The position numbers and the translations under genes are program-made. Below, piece after piece: positions 4,785 through 61,198 of a DNA stretch of 64,000 bases. The notes under the pieces were generated by a model. It was not told the origin of the DNA and ran no database searches. It saw only the letters and a list, made by a program, of their open reading frames with translations. Each line of letters starts with the position of its first letter. The stretch's first letter is position 1. Source of the DNA: a virus (taxonomy: Duplodnaviria; Caudoviricetes); the IMG/VR virus record IMGVR_UViG_3300015050_000935, positions 5,095 to 69,094 of that record; one strand, 5' to 3'.

Positions 4785-5258
4785 TCAGGCTGATTGGAGC
4801 CCGGCGCTTGCAGGGCGGTGGATGAAATAGCCCCCGCAGGGGTCGCCGAGTTGTCGGCGGTAGAGTTCGAGCTTCGGTTTGGTGCGTTCATTCGACACCA
4901 CCCCGATCACAAGGGGAATACCTAACTCATTCGAGCATCGCTTGCCAAACGAAATCATGTCCTTGGCGTGGGTGGACCGGCGGAATTCCGGGTGGACATA
5001 GCAGAAAATTTCCTCAAGGCAGTATTCATCGGTGTACCAGAACTGTCCGATGGACATGAGGATAGCGCCCTCGATGCGGTTCTGCCCCACCACCCCGATG
5101 ACCGCGCCGCCACGATTGAACGCGCGGTCCACCATGCTCTCCACCTTGGGCATAGACAGCGCGAACTGGCCGTTCTCGCCGTGGTTCTGACGGCAGATTT
5201 CCAGTATCTCGCCCCGGAGGTCCGGCGTGGCCTTGCGGACTGTCGAGACGGTCAGCAT
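4785..5258 (-). CDS. GNAT-family acetyltransferase-like protein
   Basis: EEIFCYVHPEFRRSTHAKDMI GNAT motif A-like segment; typical position beside ejection genes. Confidence 0.65.
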   Translation of the reverse strand: MLTVSTVRKATPDLRGEILEICRQNHGENGQFALSMPKVESMVDRAFNRGGAVIGVVGQNRIEGAILMSIGQFWYTDEYCLEEIFCYVHPEFRRSTHAKDMISFGKRCSNELGIPLVIGVVSNERTKPKLELYRRQLGDPCGGYFIHRPASAGLQSA

Positions 5259-51056: not shown

Positions 51057-52435
51057 ACCAGGCTCCTACCCAATTGGAAGTGTACCGCGGCGAAGTCTTG
51101 CCGCCCGAGAAGGCCAGCGAACTCTGGCAGGCGCTGCCGTCGCACATCAAGCCCGCCGTGTTCGAGCGGAATCTGATGAACGCCTTGATGGCGAACCCGG
51201 ACCTGATGCAACACGATCCCCGGCTGGTCTATCGCGAGGTGGCGAAGGCTGCGGGCCTCGGGCTGCTGCTGGACCCATTGCTGGGCGAGGGCTATCTGGT
51301 TGTCGCCTATAACTACAAAACCAAAAACAAAGAGCCGCAGTTGCGCGTCGGCTACAAAGGCATGTGCAAACTCGCCCGGCAGACTGGCGAGGTGGGGAAT
51401 ATCTATGCCCACGAGGTCCATGAAAAGGACCACGTGGAGGTGGACCTTGGATTCCCTAAGATATTCCACCACAAGCCCGTCCTGTTCGGCGATCGCGGCC
51501 CCATCATCGGGTACGTCGCCCTGATCACGTTCGATGACGGCACGTTTGATTTCGAGCCCATGTCGGTGCAGCAGTGCCACGATATTCGGGACCGCTCCGA
51601 CGCCTGGAAAGCGTTCTCGGAGGGCAAGATCAAGAGCACCCCGTGGAGCACGGACGACAGCGAAATGTCGAAAAAGACCGTCCTGCGGCGCCTGCTCAAG
51701 CGTCAGCAGCAGTCCCCTGAAATGGTGGCCGCGCAGCGGATCGAGGATGACGCCGAATTCCCGAACATGGCTCGCGCCATCGCCCCGTCCACGCCGAGGG
51801 ACGCGGGGCCTCCGCGGGCGCAGGCCATCACAGAGCAGCCCGGCCCGGCGACCATCGACGGAGAGATTGTCGAGGACGAGCCCGAGCAGCAGCGGACCGA
51901 GGAAGAACAGGGCGCGCAGACTTTCGACCAGAAGCCCGAAACCGCAGCCAAGGCCATAGAGCCCTATATGCTGCCGGTGGAACGCGAGACATTCGCGTCC
52001 CTCGCAGCCAAATACATCAAGGCCGTGGAAACCAGTCTGACCCCCGGCGACGTGTTCAAATGGGCGGAGAAAAACTACAAGGCGTTGGACCAGATCGCGC
52101 AGGGCGCGCCGGCGGAATCTGCCAAGATCAAGAAGGCGTCGGAGGAGCAGTTGCGGCGTCTGCAAGGGACGCAGCAACCAGCGCCGGACAAGACGAAACC
52201 CGCCACCCCGAAACGGGAGCGAAAGGCCAAGGCACCCAAGGACGCGCCGAAAGACGGGCCGGAGGCCATGCTGGCCACGATCGAGGCCGAACTGGCGGCG
52301 GTGGAAAGCGCCGACGGATTGGAGAAGGTCTGGCATGATGTGTGCCTGCCGCTGCTCAAGGACGCCATGCCGCCGGATCAAGACGAGGCGCAGGCCATCT
52401 ATCAGCGCCACGAAAAGCGGCTCGGCGGGGACTGA
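51053..52435 (+). CDS. recT: RecT-family single-strand annealing protein with long C-terminal extension
   Basis: AAGLGLLLDPLLGEGYLV.Y...QLRVGYKG, W.TD..EMSKKTVLRRLLK. Confidence 0.9.
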   Translation: MNQAPTQLEVYRGEVLPPEKASELWQALPSHIKPAVFERNLMNALMANPDLMQHDPRLVYREVAKAAGLGLLLDPLLGEGYLVVAYNYKTKNKEPQLRVGYKGMCKLARQTGEVGNIYAHEVHEKDHVEVDLGFPKIFHHKPVLFGDRGPIIGYVALITFDDGTFDFEPMSVQQCHDIRDRSDAWKAFSEGKIKSTPWSTDDSEMSKKTVLRRLLKRQQQSPEMVAAQRIEDDAEFPNMARAIAPSTPRDAGPPRAQAITEQPGPATIDGEIVEDEPEQQRTEEEQGAQTFDQKPETAAKAIEPYMLPVERETFASLAAKYIKAVETSLTPGDVFKWAEKNYKALDQIAQGAPAESAKIKKASEEQLRRLQGTQQPAPDKTKPATPKRERKAKAPKDAPKDGPEAMLATIEAELAAVESADGLEKVWHDVCLPLLKDAMPPDQDEAQAIYQRHEKRLGGD

Positions 52436-52912: not shown

Positions 52913-53268
52913 CCATTGAAACGAAAAACGCCGTTATCAAATCAGCCACGATCAGCAACGACGATCACGGGCTGCTCACCTCATTTTTGCATCTGGACTA
53001 TGGCGGCACGTGTCAGGGGTTCGGCGGCTACGCCCTATATCTCCCGCGCGATTTCTCTCACTCCGAGCAGTCCAAGCAACGCAATTATGCTGGCCATTTC
53101 ATCTGGCGCTGCATGGAGGTCGCGGGCGTCGGGGAGTGGTCGAAATTGCCGGGGAAAACCATCCGGGTGCGGTGCGAACACTCCAAGGTCCACGCCATCG
53201 GCCACATCGTGAAAGACGACTGGTTCAACCCGACTGATGATTTCAAGGCCATGGGAGGCGACCAGTGA
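52909..53268 (+). CDS. Conserved phage protein
   Basis: LDYGGTCQGFGGY...VAGVGEWSKLPGK.IRV...AIGHIVKD.WF. Confidence 0.7.
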   Translation: MTIETKNAVIKSATISNDDHGLLTSFLHLDYGGTCQGFGGYALYLPRDFSHSEQSKQRNYAGHFIWRCMEVAGVGEWSKLPGKTIRVRCEHSKVHAIGHIVKDDWFNPTDDFKAMGGDQ

Positions 53269-55001
53269 GCAAGAATCTTATCCCGCCCGGCGCGCTTGAT
53301 CGTCACATCGCGTTCCTCGGCGCCACTGGCTCCGGCAAAACCAGCGGGGCAAAACGCGCCGTGGTCGAGCCGGCGTTGATCGCCAAAGAGCGTGTCCACA
53401 TCATCGATCCGGCCGGCGCATGGTGGGGTTTGCGCATGAACTCCGATGGCGTCCGCAAAGGCTTCCCGATTTTCATTTTCGGCGGCGACCATGGGGACTA
53501 TCCACTGCGCGCCAAGGACGCCGAAATGCTCGCCGACGCCTTCGGGACGTCCAGCGATTCCGCAATCTTCGACACGTCCCTGATGAACGTATCGGAGCGC
53601 ACGGCATTTTTCACCGAGTTCGCCGAGGCGATCCGCCGCAAGAACCGTGGCCCGTTGAAATTCATCATTGACGAGGCGCATCTGTTCATGCCGCAGGCTG
53701 GTGCCCAGTTCGGCGGCGCGACGCCAGCGATGCTGCACGCGGGCAACAATCTGGTCAGCCTTGGCCGGTCCAAGGGGCTGCGCATTACGCTGATTTCCCA
53801 ACGCCCGGCCAAACTGCACAAGGACAGTCTCACGCAGGTGCAGTCCATGGTCGCCATGCGCTTGATGGCCCCGCAGGACCGCAAGGCCATCGCCGAGTGG
53901 ATCGCCGACCAGGCCGACCCGGAGCGTGGCAAGGAAATCATCGCATCCCTGCCGACCCTCAAGCCCGGAGAGGCTTGGGTATGGGCGCCGCAGGACGGCG
54001 TTCTTGATCGCGTGAAATTCCCGCTGCCCAAGTCCTTCGACTCAAGCAAGGCCCCCACCTCCGCCGGCGACGGGCCGCAGCTTCCACCGATCGATTTGGA
54101 CAAACTCACCGGTCGGCTCAAAGCCGTGGAAACCGAACGCAAGGCCAATGACCCCAAAGCCCTGCGCGCCGAGATTGTTAAATTGACATCCGAAATGGCG
54201 CGGATGCGCAACGAACCGCGCATTGATGACGGGGCTATACAGGCAGCGGAACAGCGCGGATATTTGGCGGGCCACGATCAGGGCCTGCGCGCGGCTGAAA
54301 AATCCCATATGGAATTGAACGACAAAGTGCGCGAGGCTCTGGCCGATTTTAACAAAACTGTCGCGCGCGTCCTGAGCGACACCATCGTGGTCGCGGTGCC
54401 ACAGGAACAGCGATCCCTCCCTCTCCCGAAATCGGCCTCGCCAGCGGCTCCTAAAGCAAAGGCCGTGGACACGCCGATTAAACGCCCGGCACCCGCCGCG
54501 CGCGTACCATCACCGGCGGCGAGCGGTGATGGGTCTTTGACTGGGCCACAGGCCGCGCTTCTCCAGGCGCTCGCATGGTGGAAACGGATGGGGCACGACG
54601 CCCCAACGCGGATTCAGTGCGCGGCTATCGCCGGCTGGAAAACTACTGGCTCCAATATCAAAAACCGGCTTTCAGAACTCTCCCAGATGGGAATGGTCAC
54701 CTACCCGGCGACCGGTAAAGTAAGCCTGACCGCCTCCGGCCTCGCCCATGCGCCGGAGCCGGATATGTCCGCGACGCTGGTGGATAGCGTGCGGAAAATC
54801 CTCACCGGCCCGCAAACGACAGCGTTTAACATCCTGCTGAAACAGGGGGAGGAAATGACCCGATCCGACCTCGCCTCGGCGTGCGGCTGGGAGGAGGGCG
54901 GGAGCAACATCAAGAATCGGCTCTCCGAGTTAAGCCGTCTCGAAATCGTCACCTATCCCGGCACGGGGCGCGTGCAACTCCAAGATTGGATCACCTCCTG
55001 A
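53265..55001 (+). CDS. HerA/FtsK-type (DUF87) ATPase with tandem C-terminal winged-helix repeats
   Basis: GATGSGKT, IIDEAH, ISQRPA; two GW...SNIKNRLSELS...VTYP repeats. Confidence 0.85.
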   Translation: MSKNLIPPGALDRHIAFLGATGSGKTSGAKRAVVEPALIAKERVHIIDPAGAWWGLRMNSDGVRKGFPIFIFGGDHGDYPLRAKDAEMLADAFGTSSDSAIFDTSLMNVSERTAFFTEFAEAIRRKNRGPLKFIIDEAHLFMPQAGAQFGGATPAMLHAGNNLVSLGRSKGLRITLISQRPAKLHKDSLTQVQSMVAMRLMAPQDRKAIAEWIADQADPERGKEIIASLPTLKPGEAWVWAPQDGVLDRVKFPLPKSFDSSKAPTSAGDGPQLPPIDLDKLTGRLKAVETERKANDPKALRAEIVKLTSEMARMRNEPRIDDGAIQAAEQRGYLAGHDQGLRAAEKSHMELNDKVREALADFNKTVARVLSDTIVVAVPQEQRSLPLPKSASPAAPKAKAVDTPIKRPAPAARVPSPAASGDGSLTGPQAALLQALAWWKRMGHDAPTRIQCAAIAGWKTTGSNIKNRLSELSQMGMVTYPATGKVSLTASGLAHAPEPDMSATLVDSVRKILTGPQTTAFNILLKQGEEMTRSDLASACGWEEGGSNIKNRLSELSRLEIVTYPGTGRVQLQDWITS

Positions 55002-57150: not shown

Positions 57151-57224
57151 TGGCAGGAGTGGAAGGAATCAAACCCTCGCGAGCGGAGTTGGAGGCCGCC
57201 ATGCTGTCATTACATCACACTCCC
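57151..57224 (-). tRNA. tRNA-Trp(CCA)
   Basis: Cloverleaf, loop CTCCAAC, G73, CCA; C31xU39; T-loop TTTGATT. Confidence 0.85.
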
Positions 57225-57228
57225 AAAT

Positions 57229-57305
57229 TGGTACTGACGGACTGATTCGAACAGTCTGCTCCCGGTTCACAGCCGGACCGCCCGTTGCCATCGAGCATCG
57301 TCAGC
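57229..57305 (-). tRNA. tRNA-His(GTG), A73, no G-1
   Basis: Loop CTGTGAA; T-arm GACTG/TTCGAAT/CAGTC. Confidence 0.85.
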
Positions 57306-57306
57306 A

Positions 57307-57377
57307 TGGTCGCGCACCCCGGTTTCGATCCGGGCTGATGGCCTTATGAGAGCCACGTCCTCGCCAGAGGGAGCGCG
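57307..57377 (-). tRNA. tRNA(CAT), mini-D-arm class (Met or Ile2 unresolved)
   Basis: CGCGCTC/CCTC-TGGC-GAGG/GTGGCT-CTCATAA-GGCCAT/CAG/T-arm; 71 nt. Confidence 0.75.
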
Positions 57378-57380
57378 GGT

Positions 57381-57452
57381 TGGCTGGGGTGGTCGGTGTC
57401 GAGCCGACCGCATCAGGCTTCAAAGGCCCAACTCCGCGCCGGCGGCACCCCG
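57381..57452 (-). tRNA. tRNA-Gln(TTG), mini-D-arm class
   Basis: Loop CTTTGAA, C1xA72, G73. Confidence 0.8.
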
Positions 57453-57458
57453 TTGAAT

Positions 57459-57533
57459 TGGCACTCCCTGCGGGTATCGATCCCGCTTCTACGGTGTGAA
57501 AAACCGCAATCCTAGCCAGTAGACGAAGGGAGC
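57459..57533 (-). tRNA. tRNA-Glu(TTC)
   Basis: Loop TTTTCAC, Glu-type D-stem GTCT. Confidence 0.85.
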
Positions 57534-57537
57534 ATGA

Positions 57538-57611
57538 TGGTGCGGGCTGCGAGGCTCGAACTCGCGTCTCTTGGTTGGAAGCCAAGGGTCCTACCTCTGA
57601 ACGAAGCACGC
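57538..57611 (-). tRNA. tRNA-Gly(TCC), A73
   Basis: CTTGG-CTTCCAA-CCAAG. Confidence 0.85.
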
Positions 57612-57639
57612 ATTTTTATGTCAAAAAATCGCATTAAAA

Positions 57640-57727
57640 TGGCGGAAGGCCGGAGACACGATCACCACACCGTCGCCGGTGCCATGCCCTTAGCAGGGGC
57701 CGCCAGCGCCTTGCTGGTTGACCTTCC
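57640..57727 (-). tRNA. tRNA-Ser(GCT)
   Basis: Loop CTGCTAA, long variable arm, G73; weak T-arm. Confidence 0.8.
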
Positions 57728-57728
57728 A

Positions 57729-57805
57729 TGGTGCTCGCGGGAGGGATCGAACCTCCATCGTCCAATTACGGTGTCCCGCTTAGGAGGCGGGGCCGGTACG
57801 CGAGC
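57729..57805 (-). tRNA. tRNA-Arg(CCT), D-armless with D-loop-like variable arm
   Basis: GCTCGCG-TACCGGC-CCCGC-CTCCTAA-GCGGG-ACACCGTAATTGGACGAT-GGAGG-TTCGATC-CCTCC-CGCGAGC-ACCA. Confidence 0.75.
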
Positions 57806-57809
57806 ATGT

Positions 57810-57884
57810 TGGCCGTCCCGCGAGGACTCGAACCCCGATTACCCGCTTAGAAGGCAGGCGCCTGTCCAGTTGGCCGACGGGACG
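57810..57884 (-). tRNA. tRNA-Arg(TCT)
   Basis: Canonical; D-loop AACTGGAC (A20). Confidence 0.9.
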
Positions 57885-57885
57885 A

Positions 57886-57959
57886 TGGAGTCGCCAGCAG
57901 GATTTCAACCTGCCTGTCCGGGGTTGCAATCCGGCGCGTAGTCACTCCGCCATGGCGAC
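57886..57959 (-). tRNA. tRNA-Cys(GCA)
   Basis: Loop TTGCAAC, U73. Confidence 0.85.
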
Positions 57960-57964
57960 AGAAT

Positions 57965-58034
57965 TGGCTGCGGACGAAAGACTTGAACTTTCATCACCCG
58001 GTTCAGAGCCGGGCTTACTCCCTGAGTATCCGCA
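57965..58034 (-). tRNA. tRNA-Gln(CTG), mini-D-arm class
   Basis: TGCGGAT/ACTC-AGG-GAGT/CCCGG-CTCTGAA-CCGGG; U1-A72, G73; 70 nt. Confidence 0.8.
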
Positions 58035-58037
58035 ATT

Positions 58038-58118
58038 TGGCCTGCACGGCAGGATTCGAACCCGCATCTTCCTCCAGTTAGCTTACTCCCGGTTCGTAGC
58101 CGGGGGGCTTACGTGCAG
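58038..58118 (-). tRNA. tRNA-Arg(ACG), D-armless with D-loop-like variable arm
   Basis: CTGCACG-TAAGCCC-CCCGG-CTACGAA-CCGGG-AGTAAGCTAACTGGAGGAAGAT-GCGGG-TTCGAAT-CCTGC-CGTGCAG-GCCA. Confidence 0.75.
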
Positions 58119-58122
58119 ATAT

Positions 58123-58197
58123 TGGCACTGCTGGCGGGTACTGACCCCGCGCCTGCCGGGTGAGAACCGACGATCCTGACCATTAGACGACAGCAGT
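58123..58197 (-). tRNA. tRNA-Glu(CTC)
   Basis: Loop TTCTCAC; T-loop GTCAGTA. Confidence 0.85.
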
Positions 58198-58201
58198 ATG
58201 T

Positions 58202-58280
58202 TGGCTCCGGTCGGCGGGATCGAACCGCCCTAATCACCGCTTAACAGGCGGGTCCATGCACCAAGCTCGGCTTGACCGGA
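58202..58280 (-). tRNA. tRNA-Asn(GTT)
   Basis: TCCGGTC/GACCGGA, loop CTGTTAA, G73. Confidence 0.85.
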
Positions 58281-58287
58281 ATAAAAA

Positions 58288-58359
58288 TGGTGGACCGACG
58301 GGGTAACGCTCCCCGCGCGACAATCTTGCAAGGATCGTCTGCACCCTTGTGCTCGGCCC
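58288..58359 (-). tRNA. tRNA-Ala(TGC), mini-D-arm class
   Basis: G3:U70, A73, 7-bp anticodon stem GACGATC/GATTGTC, T-loop AGCGTTA. Confidence 0.8.
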
Positions 58360-58432
58360 GTATTGGCCCCGGTGCGCAGCAATAGCACCGGTGGTCGCTA
58401 TAGGTCCCCTTTTCCACGGCGACCTCCTGAAA

Positions 58433-58508
58433 TGGTGCCCAGTCGTGGTTCCTCCCCACGCTCTCCGAGGCTTCAACTCGGCGCTTTCAATAGATTAGCT
58501 TACTGGGC
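58433..58508 (-). tRNA. tRNA-Phe(GAA)
   Basis: CCGAG-TTGAAGC-CTCGG; T-loop GGAGGAA; D-loop lacks GG. Confidence 0.8.
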
Positions 58509-58513
58509 TTGAT

Positions 58514-58587
58514 TGGTGCGGACACGGGGAGTCGAACCCCGGCTGAGAGTGTGGCACACTCCCCGACTTCCGTAATCTTTTGTCCGC
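58514..58587 (-). tRNA. tRNA-Gly(GCC), A73
   Basis: Loop GTGCCAC; reduced D-loop. Confidence 0.75.
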
Positions 58588-58681
58588 GTGTTGCTGGCCG
58601 CTGGCGCGCCCGTGGGCGTCTCGGCGTCGAGGCTGGAAGGGTGGCCAACCCATCCGCAGCGCACTCTCCAGCGGCGCATTC

Positions 58682-58769
58682 TGGTCCCCCGCCGTGGTAA
58701 CGATCCACGCCAGCCCGGAGGCGTCGGTTTTACAGACCGTGCCGCGTCCTTAGCGGCCTACCGAGGGGA
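58682..58769 (-). tRNA. tRNA-Tyr(GTA)
   Basis: Loop CTGTAAA, long variable arm, T-loop ATCGTTA. Confidence 0.85.
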
Positions 58770-58772
58770 ATT

Positions 58773-58848
58773 TGGTTGCGCAGGGAGGATTTGAACCCCC
58801 GACCTCCAAGTTATGAGCCTGGCGAGCTAACCGCTGCTCTACCGCGCA
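58773..58848 (-). tRNA. tRNA-Met(CAT), initiator-like
   Basis: GAGC/GCTC D-stem, CCAGG-CTCATAA, ends CGCAACCA as in alphaproteobacterial fMet. Confidence 0.85.
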
Positions 58849-59013
58849 ATAAACGGTGCCGGGCTATCAACTCCCGAGCGATGGTCCGCAGTTCATCCGT
58901 GCGGTCATGACAGCATCCGGCGATCAACCCGGATGGCCCCCCTTACGAGAGGTCTTGAGCGCCGCCTTTCGACGGACAAAAAGGGTTACCCCGATTTTCC
59001 GTCTTAGGCAACA

Positions 59014-59101
59014 TGGCGGACAGCCGAGGAATCGAACCCCCATCGCTTGCGCGAGCCACGGTTTTCAAGACCGCTGCCAGACCATTCCGGCTGGACTGTC
59101 C
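59014..59101 (-). tRNA. tRNA-Ser(TGA)
   Basis: Loop CTTGAAA, long variable arm, G73. Confidence 0.9.
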
Positions 59102-59106
59102 ATTGG

Positions 59107-59183
59107 TGGTCGTCACGGGATGACTCGAACACCCGGCCTCGGCCTTCGGAGGGCCGCGCTCTATCCAGTTGAGCTACGTGACG
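59107..59183 (-). tRNA. tRNA-Arg(CCG)
   Basis: Canonical; followed by a second encoded CCA (59104-59106). Confidence 0.9.
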
Positions 59184-59528
59184 TCATTTCTTTTTCGGCG
59201 CCGGGAAAAACTTCCGGGTCCGCTGATCTATAATCAGACTGTCATCCCGAACGATGCCCGGCTTTGTCAGCGTCGTGTGATCCATCGCCTGCTCCAACGC
59301 CAGATAGGCGTTGCCAAGGTCGGGAGTTGACGGGTTCACAAACAGCACGTCGAGAGCAATCGGGTGGTCGATCACTTCGGTGATGCCAATTTTGGCGAGC
59401 GCCTGGCGGATGAACACCCGGTACTGCTGGATGGTCCGCAGGTGCATCCGGCGATGCGGCGCGTCGTGAATCCAAAGCGACAGTTTCGGGATGTCCCGAT
59501 CGTCGTCGTACTCGGCAATGACGCGCAT
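59184..59528 (-). CDS. RusA-fold-like protein inside the tRNA array, catalytic residues degenerate
   Basis: ATG 59528 after GGAGG; PDLGNAYLALEQAMD...GIVRDDSLI versus the RusA consensus PDxDNxxKxxxD...DD. Confidence 0.65.
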   Translation of the reverse strand: MRVIAEYDDDRDIPKLSLWIHDAPHRRMHLRTIQQYRVFIRQALAKIGITEVIDHPIALDVLFVNPSTPDLGNAYLALEQAMDHTTLTKPGIVRDDSLIIDQRTRKFFPAPKKK

Positions 59529-59539
59529 GGCGTCCTCCA

Positions 59540-59616
59540 TGGTGGGCGGCCCCGGATTCGAACCGGGGTCGGACCTGTTATGAGCAGGTGGCACTGGGCC
59601 GCTGTGCTAACCGCCC
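59540..59616 (-). tRNA. tRNA(CAT), probably Ile2 (lysidine)
   Basis: GGGCGGT/GCCGCCC acceptor, A73, loop CTCATAA. Confidence 0.8.
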
Positions 59617-59727
59617 GATAGCAGCCCTGCTCCCGGCGCGACCGGGTTCGAGCCCGCCGACAGGCGTAGCGCCATGGTGCGCGTTGCCGACGGGCTCAGG
59701 AGGCGTCCACGACGCGCAGGGCAAAAT

Positions 59728-59806
59728 TGGTCTGCGTGGCAAGATTCGAACTTGCGATCCCCTGATTCCAAGTCAGGTAGGGACGACCAGACTCCCCTAC
59801 ACGCAG
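59728..59806 (-). tRNA. tRNA-Pro(TGG)
   Basis: C1-G72, A73, loop CTTGGAA. Confidence 0.9.
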
Positions 59807-59813
59807 ATGAAAA

Positions 59814-59888
59814 TGGCGCGACTTGCGGGTGCTGACCCCGCGACCTTCCCCGTGACAGGGGGATGCTCCGCCGTTGAGCTAAAGCCGC
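59814..59888 (-). tRNA. tRNA-Asp(GTC)
   Basis: Loop CTGTCAC, G73; T-loop GTCAGCA. Confidence 0.9.
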
Positions 59889-59894
59889 ATGAAA

Positions 59895-59981
59895 TGGTGC
59901 GCGTCGGGTGAATTGAACACCCACGGGATTGCTCCCACAGCCGTCTCAGGACTGCCTGTCTACCGGTTCCAGCAGACGCGC
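59895..59981 (-). tRNA. tRNA-Leu(GAG)
   Basis: Loop CTGAGAC, long variable arm, A73. Confidence 0.9.
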
Positions 59982-59984
59982 AAA

Positions 59985-60058
59985 TGGTGGACCACCACGG
60001 TACTGACCCGTGTTCACGGGGTTAAGAGGCCCGTGCATCACCTTAATGCTTGTGGTCC
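59985..60058 (-). tRNA. tRNA-Lys(CTT)
   Basis: Loop CTCTTAA; C31xC39; T-loop GTCAGTA. Confidence 0.85.
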
Positions 60059-60062
60059 GCGA

Positions 60063-60137
60063 TGGTGAACCCGCTCGGTACTGCCCCGAGTTCGCATGGG
60101 TTAAAAGGCCAGCGTGCTACTTTCCTACTCCGGGTCC
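60063..60137 (-). tRNA. tRNA-Lys(TTT)
   Basis: Loop CTTTTAA; C31xC39; T-loop GGCAGTA. Confidence 0.8.
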
Positions 60138-60139
60138 GA

Positions 60140-60265
60140 TTAGGACCGGGGTTTGTGGCGCGCGGCGAGCACCGCCATGCGCTCCTGCACGCGGCGCAGC
60201 GTCTCCTGGCACGCTTCGGAAAGCGTGTGCGTGCCCGTCACCGGGTCGGTGGTGGTGCCCTTCAT
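60140..60265 (-). CDS. Small ORF (41 aa) inside the tRNA array
   Basis: AGGAG RBS; MKGTTTDPVTGTHTLSEACQETLRRVQERMAVLAARHKPRS. Confidence 0.55.
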   Translation of the reverse strand: MKGTTTDPVTGTHTLSEACQETLRRVQERMAVLAARHKPRS

Positions 60266-60278
60266 GTCGCTCTCCTGT

Positions 60279-60352
60279 TGGTAGTCCTAGCCGGTTACGA
60301 TCCGACGTCTGCCGGTTATCAGCCGGCTGCACTGCCATTGTGCTATAGGACC
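60279..60352 (-). tRNA. tRNA-Ile(GAT)
   Basis: GCCGG-CTGATAA-CCGGC; T-loop ATCGTAA. Confidence 0.9.
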
Positions 60353-60356
60353 ATGA

Positions 60357-60431
60357 TGGTGCGCCTTGCAGGTGCTGCCCCTGCGGCCTCCTGCATGTCA
60401 CGCAGGCGATCTGCTGCTGATCTAAAGGCGC
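60357..60431 (-). tRNA. tRNA-Val(GAC)
   Basis: Loop GTGACAT; T-loop GGCAGCA. Confidence 0.85.
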
Positions 60432-60551
60432 CCGAAATTCGATCGGCAGTCTGGGAGCAACCCCTATGCCGGTCCCGCTGCCGTCCGCAGCCAGTTTTTG
60501 GACCGGAAGCAACCCCGATCTTACTGGCCAGCCGTGACCTTGCAGCGATGC

Positions 60552-60626
60552 TGGTACACCGTGAGGATGTCGAAACCCCGGCCTCCCCCGTGTGAAAGGG
60601 GCGCTCTGCCTCTGAGCTAACGGTGC
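60552..60626 (-). tRNA. tRNA-Val(CAC)
   Basis: Loop TTCACAC, A73. Confidence 0.85.
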
Positions 60627-60632
60627 GTGAAG

Positions 60633-60721
60633 TGGTGCCCGGCGCAGGAGTCGAACCCGCACGGTCCGCGAGGACCAGATCGCTTTTGAGGCGTCGGCGT
60701 CTACCGTTCCGCCAGCCGGGC
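60633..60721 (-). tRNA. tRNA-Leu(CAA)
   Basis: Loop CTCAAAA, long variable arm. Confidence 0.9.
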
Positions 60722-60726
60722 ATGAT

Positions 60727-60812
60727 TGGTGTCGGCGGGGAGACTCGAACTCCCAAAGCTACGCGGTCTGAACGCGCACGGTATGCCAAATTCCCGATGA
60801 AGCCACGCCGAC
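60727..60812 (-). tRNA. tRNA-Leu(CAG), enlarged D region and short variable arm
   Basis: GCGCG-TTCAGAC-CGCGT; variable region only AGCTTT. Confidence 0.8.
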
Positions 60813-60815
60813 AAA

Positions 60816-60890
60816 TGGTGCCCGGTGCAGGTTACGATCCTGCGCCTGTTCCTTACCAAAGAACCGGTCTGCCATTGATCCTAACCGGGC
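60816..60890 (-). tRNA. tRNA-Thr(GGT)
   Basis: Loop TTGGTAA; T-loop ATCGTAA. Confidence 0.9.
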
Positions 60891-60926
60891 GCGTATCTCG
60901 GCGTTGTAGGCGCGCATTGGCGCCTC

Positions 60927-61038
60927 GTTCGTTCCCGTAGTGCAAAGGGGTATCCTACCAACTAGACGAACCCGCAGGTTTCCCCGCAAGTGCAGGGCTC
61001 GAACCTGCGTCTCCCCAACCCTACGGCTCTCGCCGAAC
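60927..61038 (-). ncRNA. Circularly permuted tRNA mimic, YrlA-type Y RNA candidate
   Basis: Order: long stem 5' strand, GGGG, AGAC, T-arm GCAGG-TTCGAGC-CCTGC, acceptor capped by GAAA, D-arm GTCT-AGTTGGTA-GGAT, CCCC, long stem 3' strand. Confidence 0.7.
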
Positions 61039-61112
61039 TGGTGCCCCAGCCGGTAATCGAAACCGGCTCTGCCGCTTACGAGGCGGCTGCATCGCCTCAA
61101 TGCTTCAAGGGC
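61039..61112 (-). tRNA. tRNA-Thr(CGT)
   Basis: GCCGC-CTCGTAA-GCGGC. Confidence 0.9.
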
Positions 61113-61123
61113 AAATCTGTTCT

Positions 61124-61198
61124 TGGTGCTGGCTCGGTGAATCGAACACCGGTCATTCGCTGTACAAAGGCGACGGTCTGCCACTGGCCTAAGCCAGC
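61124..61198 (-). tRNA. tRNA-Thr(TGT)
   Basis: Loop TTTGTAC; first tRNA of the array. Confidence 0.85.

Follow-up and report, generated by a model that had tools for sequence, protein, structure and literature searches.

Can a gene without a D hairpin still encode an arginine transfer RNA (tRNA) for bacterial translation, and if so, what has become of its D-arm? The question is raised by a viral sequence of the Caudoviricetes (Duplodnaviria), IMG/VR record IMGVR_UViG_3300015050_000935, of which we analyzed positions 5,095 to 69,094, a stretch of 64,000 nucleotides (nt) referred to here as the window. Within a dense array of tRNA genes, its minus strand carries a candidate tRNA-Arg(CCU) gene at 57729..57805 (gene 1) and a candidate tRNA-Arg(ACG) gene at 58038..58118 (gene 2), the locations and anticodons being exactly those given in an earlier note on this DNA. 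That note described both as D-armless tRNAs with the D-loop relocated into the variable arm, argued for a functional alternative fold rather than decay, and suggested that a covariance search might bring up homologues. We are nearly certain that the two genes belong to a conserved structured RNA family. From the comparative sequence data we also think it probable that both are functional, decoding arginine tRNAs, of a non-cloverleaf type carried by phages and mobile tRNA arrays. The D-stem, by this evidence, appears not to have been lost at all, but to be present with its connectivity swapped.

Layout of the genes and position of the D-stem

Gene 1 is 77 nt long including its encoded CCA. As read from the sequence, it has a 7-base-pair (bp) acceptor stem without mismatch, U8 A9 and a further 5 nt of linker, a 5-bp anticodon stem with a 7-nt loop containing the anticodon CCU (57782..57784, which reads AGG), an 18-nt region holding U-AAUUGGA, a 5-bp T stem with the loop UUCGAUC, and discriminator A before the CCA. 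Gene 2 (81 nt, again including an encoded CCA) is built to the same plan, with anticodon ACG (58095..58097), a 22-nt region containing U-AACUGGA, and discriminator G followed by CCA. In both genes all seven of the acceptor pairs are formed, the anticodon loop has the form CU-NNN-AA and the T loop is of the UUCGA type. Neither has a D hairpin before the anticodon arm, and the distance from acceptor stem to anticodon stem is just 7 nt. The earlier description of a shared architecture (perfect acceptor stem, 7-nt linker beginning with UA, normal anticodon and T arms, and an 18- or 22-nt region in place of the variable loop) is therefore accurate. It was also right that the relocated string matches the D-loop AACUGGA found in the two ordinary Arg tRNAs of the array, tRNA-Arg(UCU) at 57884-57810 and tRNA-Arg(CCG) at 59183-59107, both on the minus strand; the AAUUGGA of gene 1 is identical to those D-loops except at one pyrimidine.

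What the 7-nt linker does is a different matter. In gene 1, nt 11-13 (CGG, 57793..57795) are complementary to nt 35-37 (CCG, 57769..57771), which lie 3' of the anticodon arm. These are followed by U and AAUUGGA (57761..57768), equivalent to a D-loop with A14 A15 U16 U17 G18 G19 A20, and then by a 4-nt connector to the T stem, CGAU (57757..57760), the last U of which is the proposed U48 and Levitt partner of A15. Gene 2 has the same arrangement: nt 10-12 (AGC, 58107..58109) are complementary to nt 37-39 (GCU, 58080..58082), the D-loop equivalent AACUGGA (A14 to A20) is at 58073..58079, and a 7-nt connector, GGAAGAU (58066..58072), ends in the proposed U48. All these features are on the minus strand. 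When gene 2 is folded alone with ViennaRNA, the minimum free energy (MFE) structure and the centroid both contain this helix, and for both genes it is supported by covariation in the family. We read the strand 5' of the D-loop as the equivalent of canonical nt 10-13, while the actual nt 10-13 would replace nt 22-25 and enter the anticodon stem directly, with the anticodon arm nested inside the D-stem.

The covariation comes from homologues collected in IMG/VR by a scan for an anticodon loop, the relocated motif and a T loop at the correct spacings. In a motif-anchored alignment of the 100 distinct sequences from this first scan, the two bases directly 5' of U-AAYUGGA form pairs with nt 11 and 12 in 199 of 200 cells, where shuffled partners give 109±5.5 paired cells and a maximum of 128. 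Each of the two pairs is represented by all four Watson-Crick types, in dinucleotide combinations that include CC/GG (39), CG/CG (19), AC/GU (14), GC/GC (11) and CA/UG (6) along with others. Pairing extends to nt 10, opposite the U, in 20% of members and to nt 13, opposite the next base, in 44%, which puts the helix at 2-4 bp. An alignment based on a covariance model of the family has compensatory changes in all four helices and double changes at both core pairs, and the structure as a whole is 96.8% paired there, compared with 63.4% when sequences are shuffled and at most 47.5% when partners are slid.

These counts bear directly on whether the genes might be truly D-armless, the relocated D-loop capping a hairpin in the variable arm and the 7-nt linker remaining unpaired, as the earlier note had it. 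Gene 1 can indeed form a local 3-bp hairpin, CGU/ACG, around AAUUGG. Gene 2 can form at most two such pairs, and across the 100 members the local hairpin is paired in only 51% and 26%, near chance, against 99.5% with covariation for pairing through the linker. The variable-arm hairpin was rejected on these figures, and with the linker paired around the anticodon arm the term D-armless does not hold either; we consider a genuinely D-armless structure very unlikely.

Distribution and annotation of the family

The IMG/VR scan found the rewired architecture in at least 120 viral contigs, and every match had the same layout. The anticodons of its 100 distinct sequences are Arg throughout, the linkers measure 7 or 8 nt, and the acceptor stem has 7 pairs in 95 sequences and 5 or 6 in the others. 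U8 A9 and the A-U that precedes the T stem are invariant in all 100, though these positions are outside the search motif. Searches of the same loci and of later fetches with R1, the covariance model built from the collected family sequences, added further members and brought the total to 146 distinct sequences, 142 of which have the Arg anticodons ACG, CCU, UCU, UCG, CCG or GCG. The proposed covariance search thus returned a family with a conserved layout. It also alters how the resemblance between genes 1 and 2 should be understood: the two isoacceptors do share one plan, as the earlier note stressed, but common membership of an old and widespread family explains this better than independent events in this phage.

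The same motif scan, applied to prokaryotes with one genome for each of 185,579 species, gave 12 true members. All of the 12 are in dense tRNA arrays, most of them on contigs of metagenome-assembled genomes and two on large Bradyrhizobium scaffolds. Each of the latter, in Bradyrhizobium sp. C9 (NZ_NWTG01000004.1, a 480-kb scaffold with 18 tRNA genes per 8 kb) and Bradyrhizobium sp. Ai1a-2 (NZ_AUEZ01000004.1, a 214-kb scaffold with 22 tRNA genes per 8 kb), includes a rewired Arg(ACG) gene, and both arrays are presumably prophages or other integrated elements residing in cultured isolates. Among phages, Mesorhizobium phage Cp1R7A-A1 has a full-length copy of gene 2 (MT188704.1, 37602-37681), 84% identical and unannotated, directly after an annotated tRNA-Asp gene. 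In the Caulobacter crescentus phage phiCbK the likewise unannotated gene is at 52333-52412 of NC_019405.1. The family member of phage CcrColossus matches 30 records of Caulobacter phages (phiCbK-like) and 3 of Brevundimonas phages, 32 of these matches extending over at least 80% of its length, and the region is annotated in none of the 25 listed Caulobacter/Brevundimonas phage records.

Standard gene finders handle these sequences poorly. ARAGORN at default settings calls neither gene of the window. Against the Rfam tRNA model (RF00005), gene 2 reaches 30.0 bits, with a threshold of 29, in an alignment that deletes the D-arm (15 model positions) and inserts 19 nt; gene 1 has no RF00005 match, its best Rfam score being 26.6 bits for tRNA-Sec, where the threshold is 47. 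R1 gives gene 1 67.9 bits and gene 2 88.9 bits, both having been training members. Among the 165 family genes in the fetched loci, default ARAGORN overlaps 2 and misses 163. Because of this, and because the cultured phages that we examined leave the gene unannotated, Arg tRNAs are systematically undercounted in phage tRNA repertoires and in analyses of codon coverage.

Genes that a gene finder misses might simply be tRNA pseudogenes in decay, having lost the D-arm within a fast-evolving array, and many other genes of the array in the window do have weak or reduced D-arms that escape default ARAGORN. Decay would not, however, be expected to leave a single architecture, with four helices that show compensatory changes, at more than 130 loci, or identical design rules in phages from Caulobacter and Mesorhizobium to the sea. 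Nor do these genes, as a rule, have ordinary twins: 161 of the 165 have no ordinary gene of the same anticodon in the same locus, and family loci have a median of 11 tRNA genes. Covariation effectively refutes decay, to which we assign almost no probability.

Two further observations concern the limits of the family. In some members C replaces the near-universal U at position 33, giving the anticodon loop CC-UCU/UCG-AA (L143:1557-1633, L157:9192-9268 and L176:7984-8064 in our locus set). The second is a partial look-alike in T5-like phages, matched by blastn in Escherichia phage DaisyDussoix (MZ501058.1, about 68851-68922; L123:1469-1540) and in about 85 other T5-like records. It has the partner strand, UAACUGG, a connector and a T arm, with 91% identity to gene 2, and is either unannotated or placed under a "hypothetical protein" on the opposite strand. 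We did not count it as a member, as it has no proper anticodon arm, a mismatched acceptor stem and an R1 score of 35.9 bits; it could be a remnant of a former member or some other kind of tRNA-like element.

Proposed core contacts, arginine identity and decoding

In ordinary tRNAs, a purine at position 15 and a pyrimidine at position 48 form the Levitt pair. If the relocated loop occupied its usual place in the tRNA core, position 15 should covary with the base before the T stem, and it does. All 100 of the first-scan members have A15 together with a U at the latter position. A separate scan for G15 found 17 true members, from several linker subfamilies, in which the base at that position is C (12 members), U (3) or G (2); the association has a Fisher p of 7e-14. 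In both genes of the window, A15 is accompanied by U ahead of the T stem. That positions 15 and 48 behave as an R15:Y48 Levitt pair argues for a relocated loop lying in the usual tRNA core.

Bacterial arginyl-tRNA synthetase (ArgRS) recognizes an established identity set consisting of A20, C35 and position 36. A20 is present in every Arg member of the family, while the rare Ile and Lys members have U20. The correlation can be followed in alignment columns of the 31 members that were found by the model only and lie outside the scan motifs: the base after GG is A in 28 of 28 Arg members and U in two Ile(GAU) members and one Lys(CUU) member. A control scan for anticodons without C35 yielded one member, with anticodon UAU, and the remainder were noise or ordinary class II Tyr/Leu genes. 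The UAU member keeps A20. The four non-Arg members (L074:692-772, L006:2428-2504, L223:11003-11080 and L185:1726-1802; two Ile(GAU), one Lys(CUU) and one UAU) indicate that the rewired fold is not strictly tied to arginine. Conservation across the family and the correlation of A20 with the anticodon thus bear out the earlier claim that the relocated loop retains G18, G19 and the ArgRS identity base A20. Together with covariation, they also favor the view that the fold is a functional alternative and not a product of decay.

Several points weigh against this interpretation. The MFE fold of gene 1 differs from the rewired fold. The helix itself is short: it has 3 bp in each gene of the window, and its range in the family is 2-4 bp. 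Applied to a MAFFT alignment, RNAalifold gives only the acceptor, anticodon and T helices, which we attribute to the shortness of the helix and to a register that is off by one column in some subfamilies; because of these register shifts, pairs were counted on the motif-anchored and model-based alignments. The same problem brings pair 12:41 down to 82% paired in the model-based alignment. Because UAAYUGGA and the T loop are fixed in the motif by which most members were found, invariance at those bases is partly by construction; family sequences are also related, so that counts of cells exceed the number of independent events. Finally, C48 is missing from 5 of the 17 G15 members, with G at that position in phiCbK-type genes.

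We infer the three-dimensional fold and the steps of processing, charging, inosine formation and decoding as follows. After U8 A9, nt 10-13 would lead straight into the anticodon arm. A spacer of 3-5 nt would follow that arm, and the next 2-4 nt would pair back with nt 10-13. Then would come an ordinary D-loop, A14 R15 Y16 U17 G18 G19 A20, a connector of 4-9 nt ending in U48, and a normal T arm. Like an ordinary D-stem, the rewired helix could be stacked on the anticodon stem, with the loop reaching the elbow, where contacts between U8 and A14, R15 and Y48, and G18G19 and the T loop would produce an ordinary L shape. RNase P would excise the RNA from the array transcript, with trimming at the 3' end, and host ArgRS would recognize A20, C35 and G36/U36. 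In the ACG species, TadA would convert A34 to inosine. EF-Tu would meet a normal 7/5 acceptor/T helix, and the ribosome would use the tRNA normally.

Deamination of A34 is known biology for bacterial tRNA-Arg(ACG). In this phage, gene 1 would read AGG and gene 2, if its A34 is deaminated, would read CGU, CGC and CGA. The Arg codons in 69 long open reading frames (ORFs) of the phage are CGC (588), CGG (353), CGU (142), CGA (129), AGG (98) and AGA (48), and by these counts about 63% of Arg codons would fall to an ACG species with inosine and about 7% to the CCU species. The Arg anticodons of the array are UCU and CCG in ordinary genes and CCU and ACG in rewired ones, without duplicates; the two rewired genes thus complete a non-redundant four-member Arg set. 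Both occupy regular slots, 1-5 nt from their neighbors, with CCA encoded.

Conservation and covariation report selection on the fold and not on decoding, and the same family might therefore consist of non-decoding tRNA-like RNAs, acting as decoys or sponges for tRNA-targeting nucleases, ArgRS or TadA, or as elements for processing or regulating the array transcript. Phage tRNA arrays have been proposed as anti-defense elements (PMC12803027), which would be in keeping with a decoy or sponge. A decoy has no need, though, for all of the features seen together here: anticodons confined to six Arg anticodons and tracked by A20, an acceptor/T helix, discriminator and CCA that are all complete, and genes placed in isoacceptor slots that are otherwise empty in their arrays. 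We therefore regard a purely non-decoding role as improbable, and continue with the reading in which these RNAs are charged and decode.

If they do, the persistence of the rewiring could be explained by a neutral founder event that spread through array exchange, or by adaptation, the tRNAs evading a host factor that recognizes the ordinary D-arm. In the adaptive version, the determinants for ArgRS, TadA, EF-Tu and the ribosome are kept while the topology of the D-arm is altered, so that the Arg tRNAs could evade a host factor needing an ordinary D-arm, such as a nuclease or toxin directed at tRNA-Arg, or a quality-control or modification enzyme; alternatively, a phage factor might distinguish them from host tRNAs. 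We find this adaptive explanation speculative and rather doubtful. If it were true, the rewiring would be a structural anti-defense strategy, and the family would provide the first natural non-cloverleaf tRNA of bacterial translation.

Known tRNA folds and the phage array

How far does the rewired fold depart from tRNAs already described? Its parts are largely those of an ordinary class I tRNA-Arg (RF00005). The two have in common a 7-bp acceptor stem, U8, a 5-bp anticodon stem, a CU-NNN-AA loop and Arg anticodons, as well as AAYUGGA with G18, G19 and A20, covariation of the R15:Y48 type, a 5-bp T stem, a UUCGA loop and CCA. The rewired genes, by contrast, lack a D hairpin: the D-loop in its entirety, along with the strand that pairs with nt 10-13, is placed 3' of the anticodon arm, the junction is three-way and not four-way, and a spacer, the D-loop and a connector stand in place of the ordinary variable loop.

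Class II tRNAs (Leu, Ser and Tyr) also have 18-25 nt between the anticodon and T arms, but they combine a normal D-arm with a self-contained variable hairpin. The rewired genes have neither, and their long region pairs with nt 10-13. The class II Tyr/Leu genes that turned up in the control scan contain the motif by chance in the variable hairpin, and all have ordinary D-arms. The circularly permuted tRNA genes of the red alga Cyanidioschyzon merolae begin with the 3' half, the 5' half comes second, and a normal cloverleaf is regained on processing. These share with the rewired genes an order of segments unlike the textbook order, but the acceptor ends of the rewired genes are in their normal places, and it is the mature RNA itself that would carry the unusual connectivity.

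The D-armless tRNAs of mitochondria, such as metazoan tRNA-Ser(AGY) and nematode tRNA-Ser, resemble the rewired genes in that a short linker replaces the D hairpin. Three papers describe them as truncated, with flexible cores (PMC4013460, PMC7609411, PMC9427863). The rewired genes, on the other hand, keep the D-loop with its G18G19, the canonical UUCGA T loop and the strand of the D-stem, and just reconnect them, and the setting is bacterial translation instead of a co-evolved mitochondrial system. The allo-tRNAs and the 8/4 or 9/3 tRNAs of bacteria and phage tRNA clusters (Mukai et al., PMC5389517) are likewise non-standard designs from phage tRNA clusters and metagenomes; Mukai et al. folded phage tRNA clusters by hand and reported 8/4 Ser and His species. 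These tRNAs, with 8-9 bp in the acceptor stem and 4-3 bp in the T stem, alter the acceptor/T split within a cloverleaf that has a D-arm, while the rewired family keeps the 7/5 split and alters the connectivity of the D-arm.

A 2020 review of natural non-canonical tRNAs (PMC7609411) lists none from phages or bacteria that lacks a D hairpin, and a 2024 paper describes every known bacterial tRNA as a cloverleaf. A full-text literature search found no description of the rewired fold, although subscription journals are thinly covered by it and a prior description is possible. If the family is charged and decodes, the cloverleaf would not be the sole connectivity accepted by bacterial translation, and the L shape could arise from the same parts joined in another order. 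The family would then be a natural system for separating those components that read tRNA topology from those that read shape alone, the candidates being RNase P, ArgRS, TadA, modification enzymes, EF-Tu, the ribosome and anticodon nucleases. The rewired design is also a possible scaffold for orthogonal tRNAs.

The assembly that carries genes 1 and 2 is a single 69-kb contig with 62% G+C. Its gene products include a large terminase, an SU10-type portal, virion proteins and a DnaB helicase, which identify the contig as a phage. The tRNA array (57151..61198, minus strand) consists of about 35 genes spaced 1-5 nt apart, nearly all of which end in CCA. A neighboring gene (53265-55001) encodes a HerA-like protein, for which two viral contigs were matched at 49% identity (IMG/VR 3300015615_000275 and 2920053212_000002). 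Neither of these has tRNA genes within 10 kb downstream, so no homologous array was obtained from them, and the array of the window accordingly seems to have been acquired in this phage lineage. A blastn search with the whole array against phage records found single ordinary tRNAs only, and blastn with gene 1 alone gave no match.

Apart from genes 1 and 2, at least nine more tRNA genes of the array are invisible to default ARAGORN and are seen at a lowered threshold or with Rfam. They are located on the minus strand at 57154-57224, 57307-57377, 57381-57452, 57640-57727, 58126-58197, 58288-58359, 58682-58767, 59985-60058 and 60360-60431, and in several the D-arm is reduced or the T loop unusual. 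None fits R1, the best score among them being 23 bits. Three stretches of the array on the same strand, 58360-58513, 58588-58681 and 58850-59012, received no tRNA call from any tool and contain no obvious ORF. Directly downstream of gene 2 is a tRNA-Gln(CUG) gene of 70 nt (57965-58034, minus strand) with a very small D-arm of its own, in which a 4-bp stem with one mismatch closes a 5-nt loop and the usual G18G19 context is absent.
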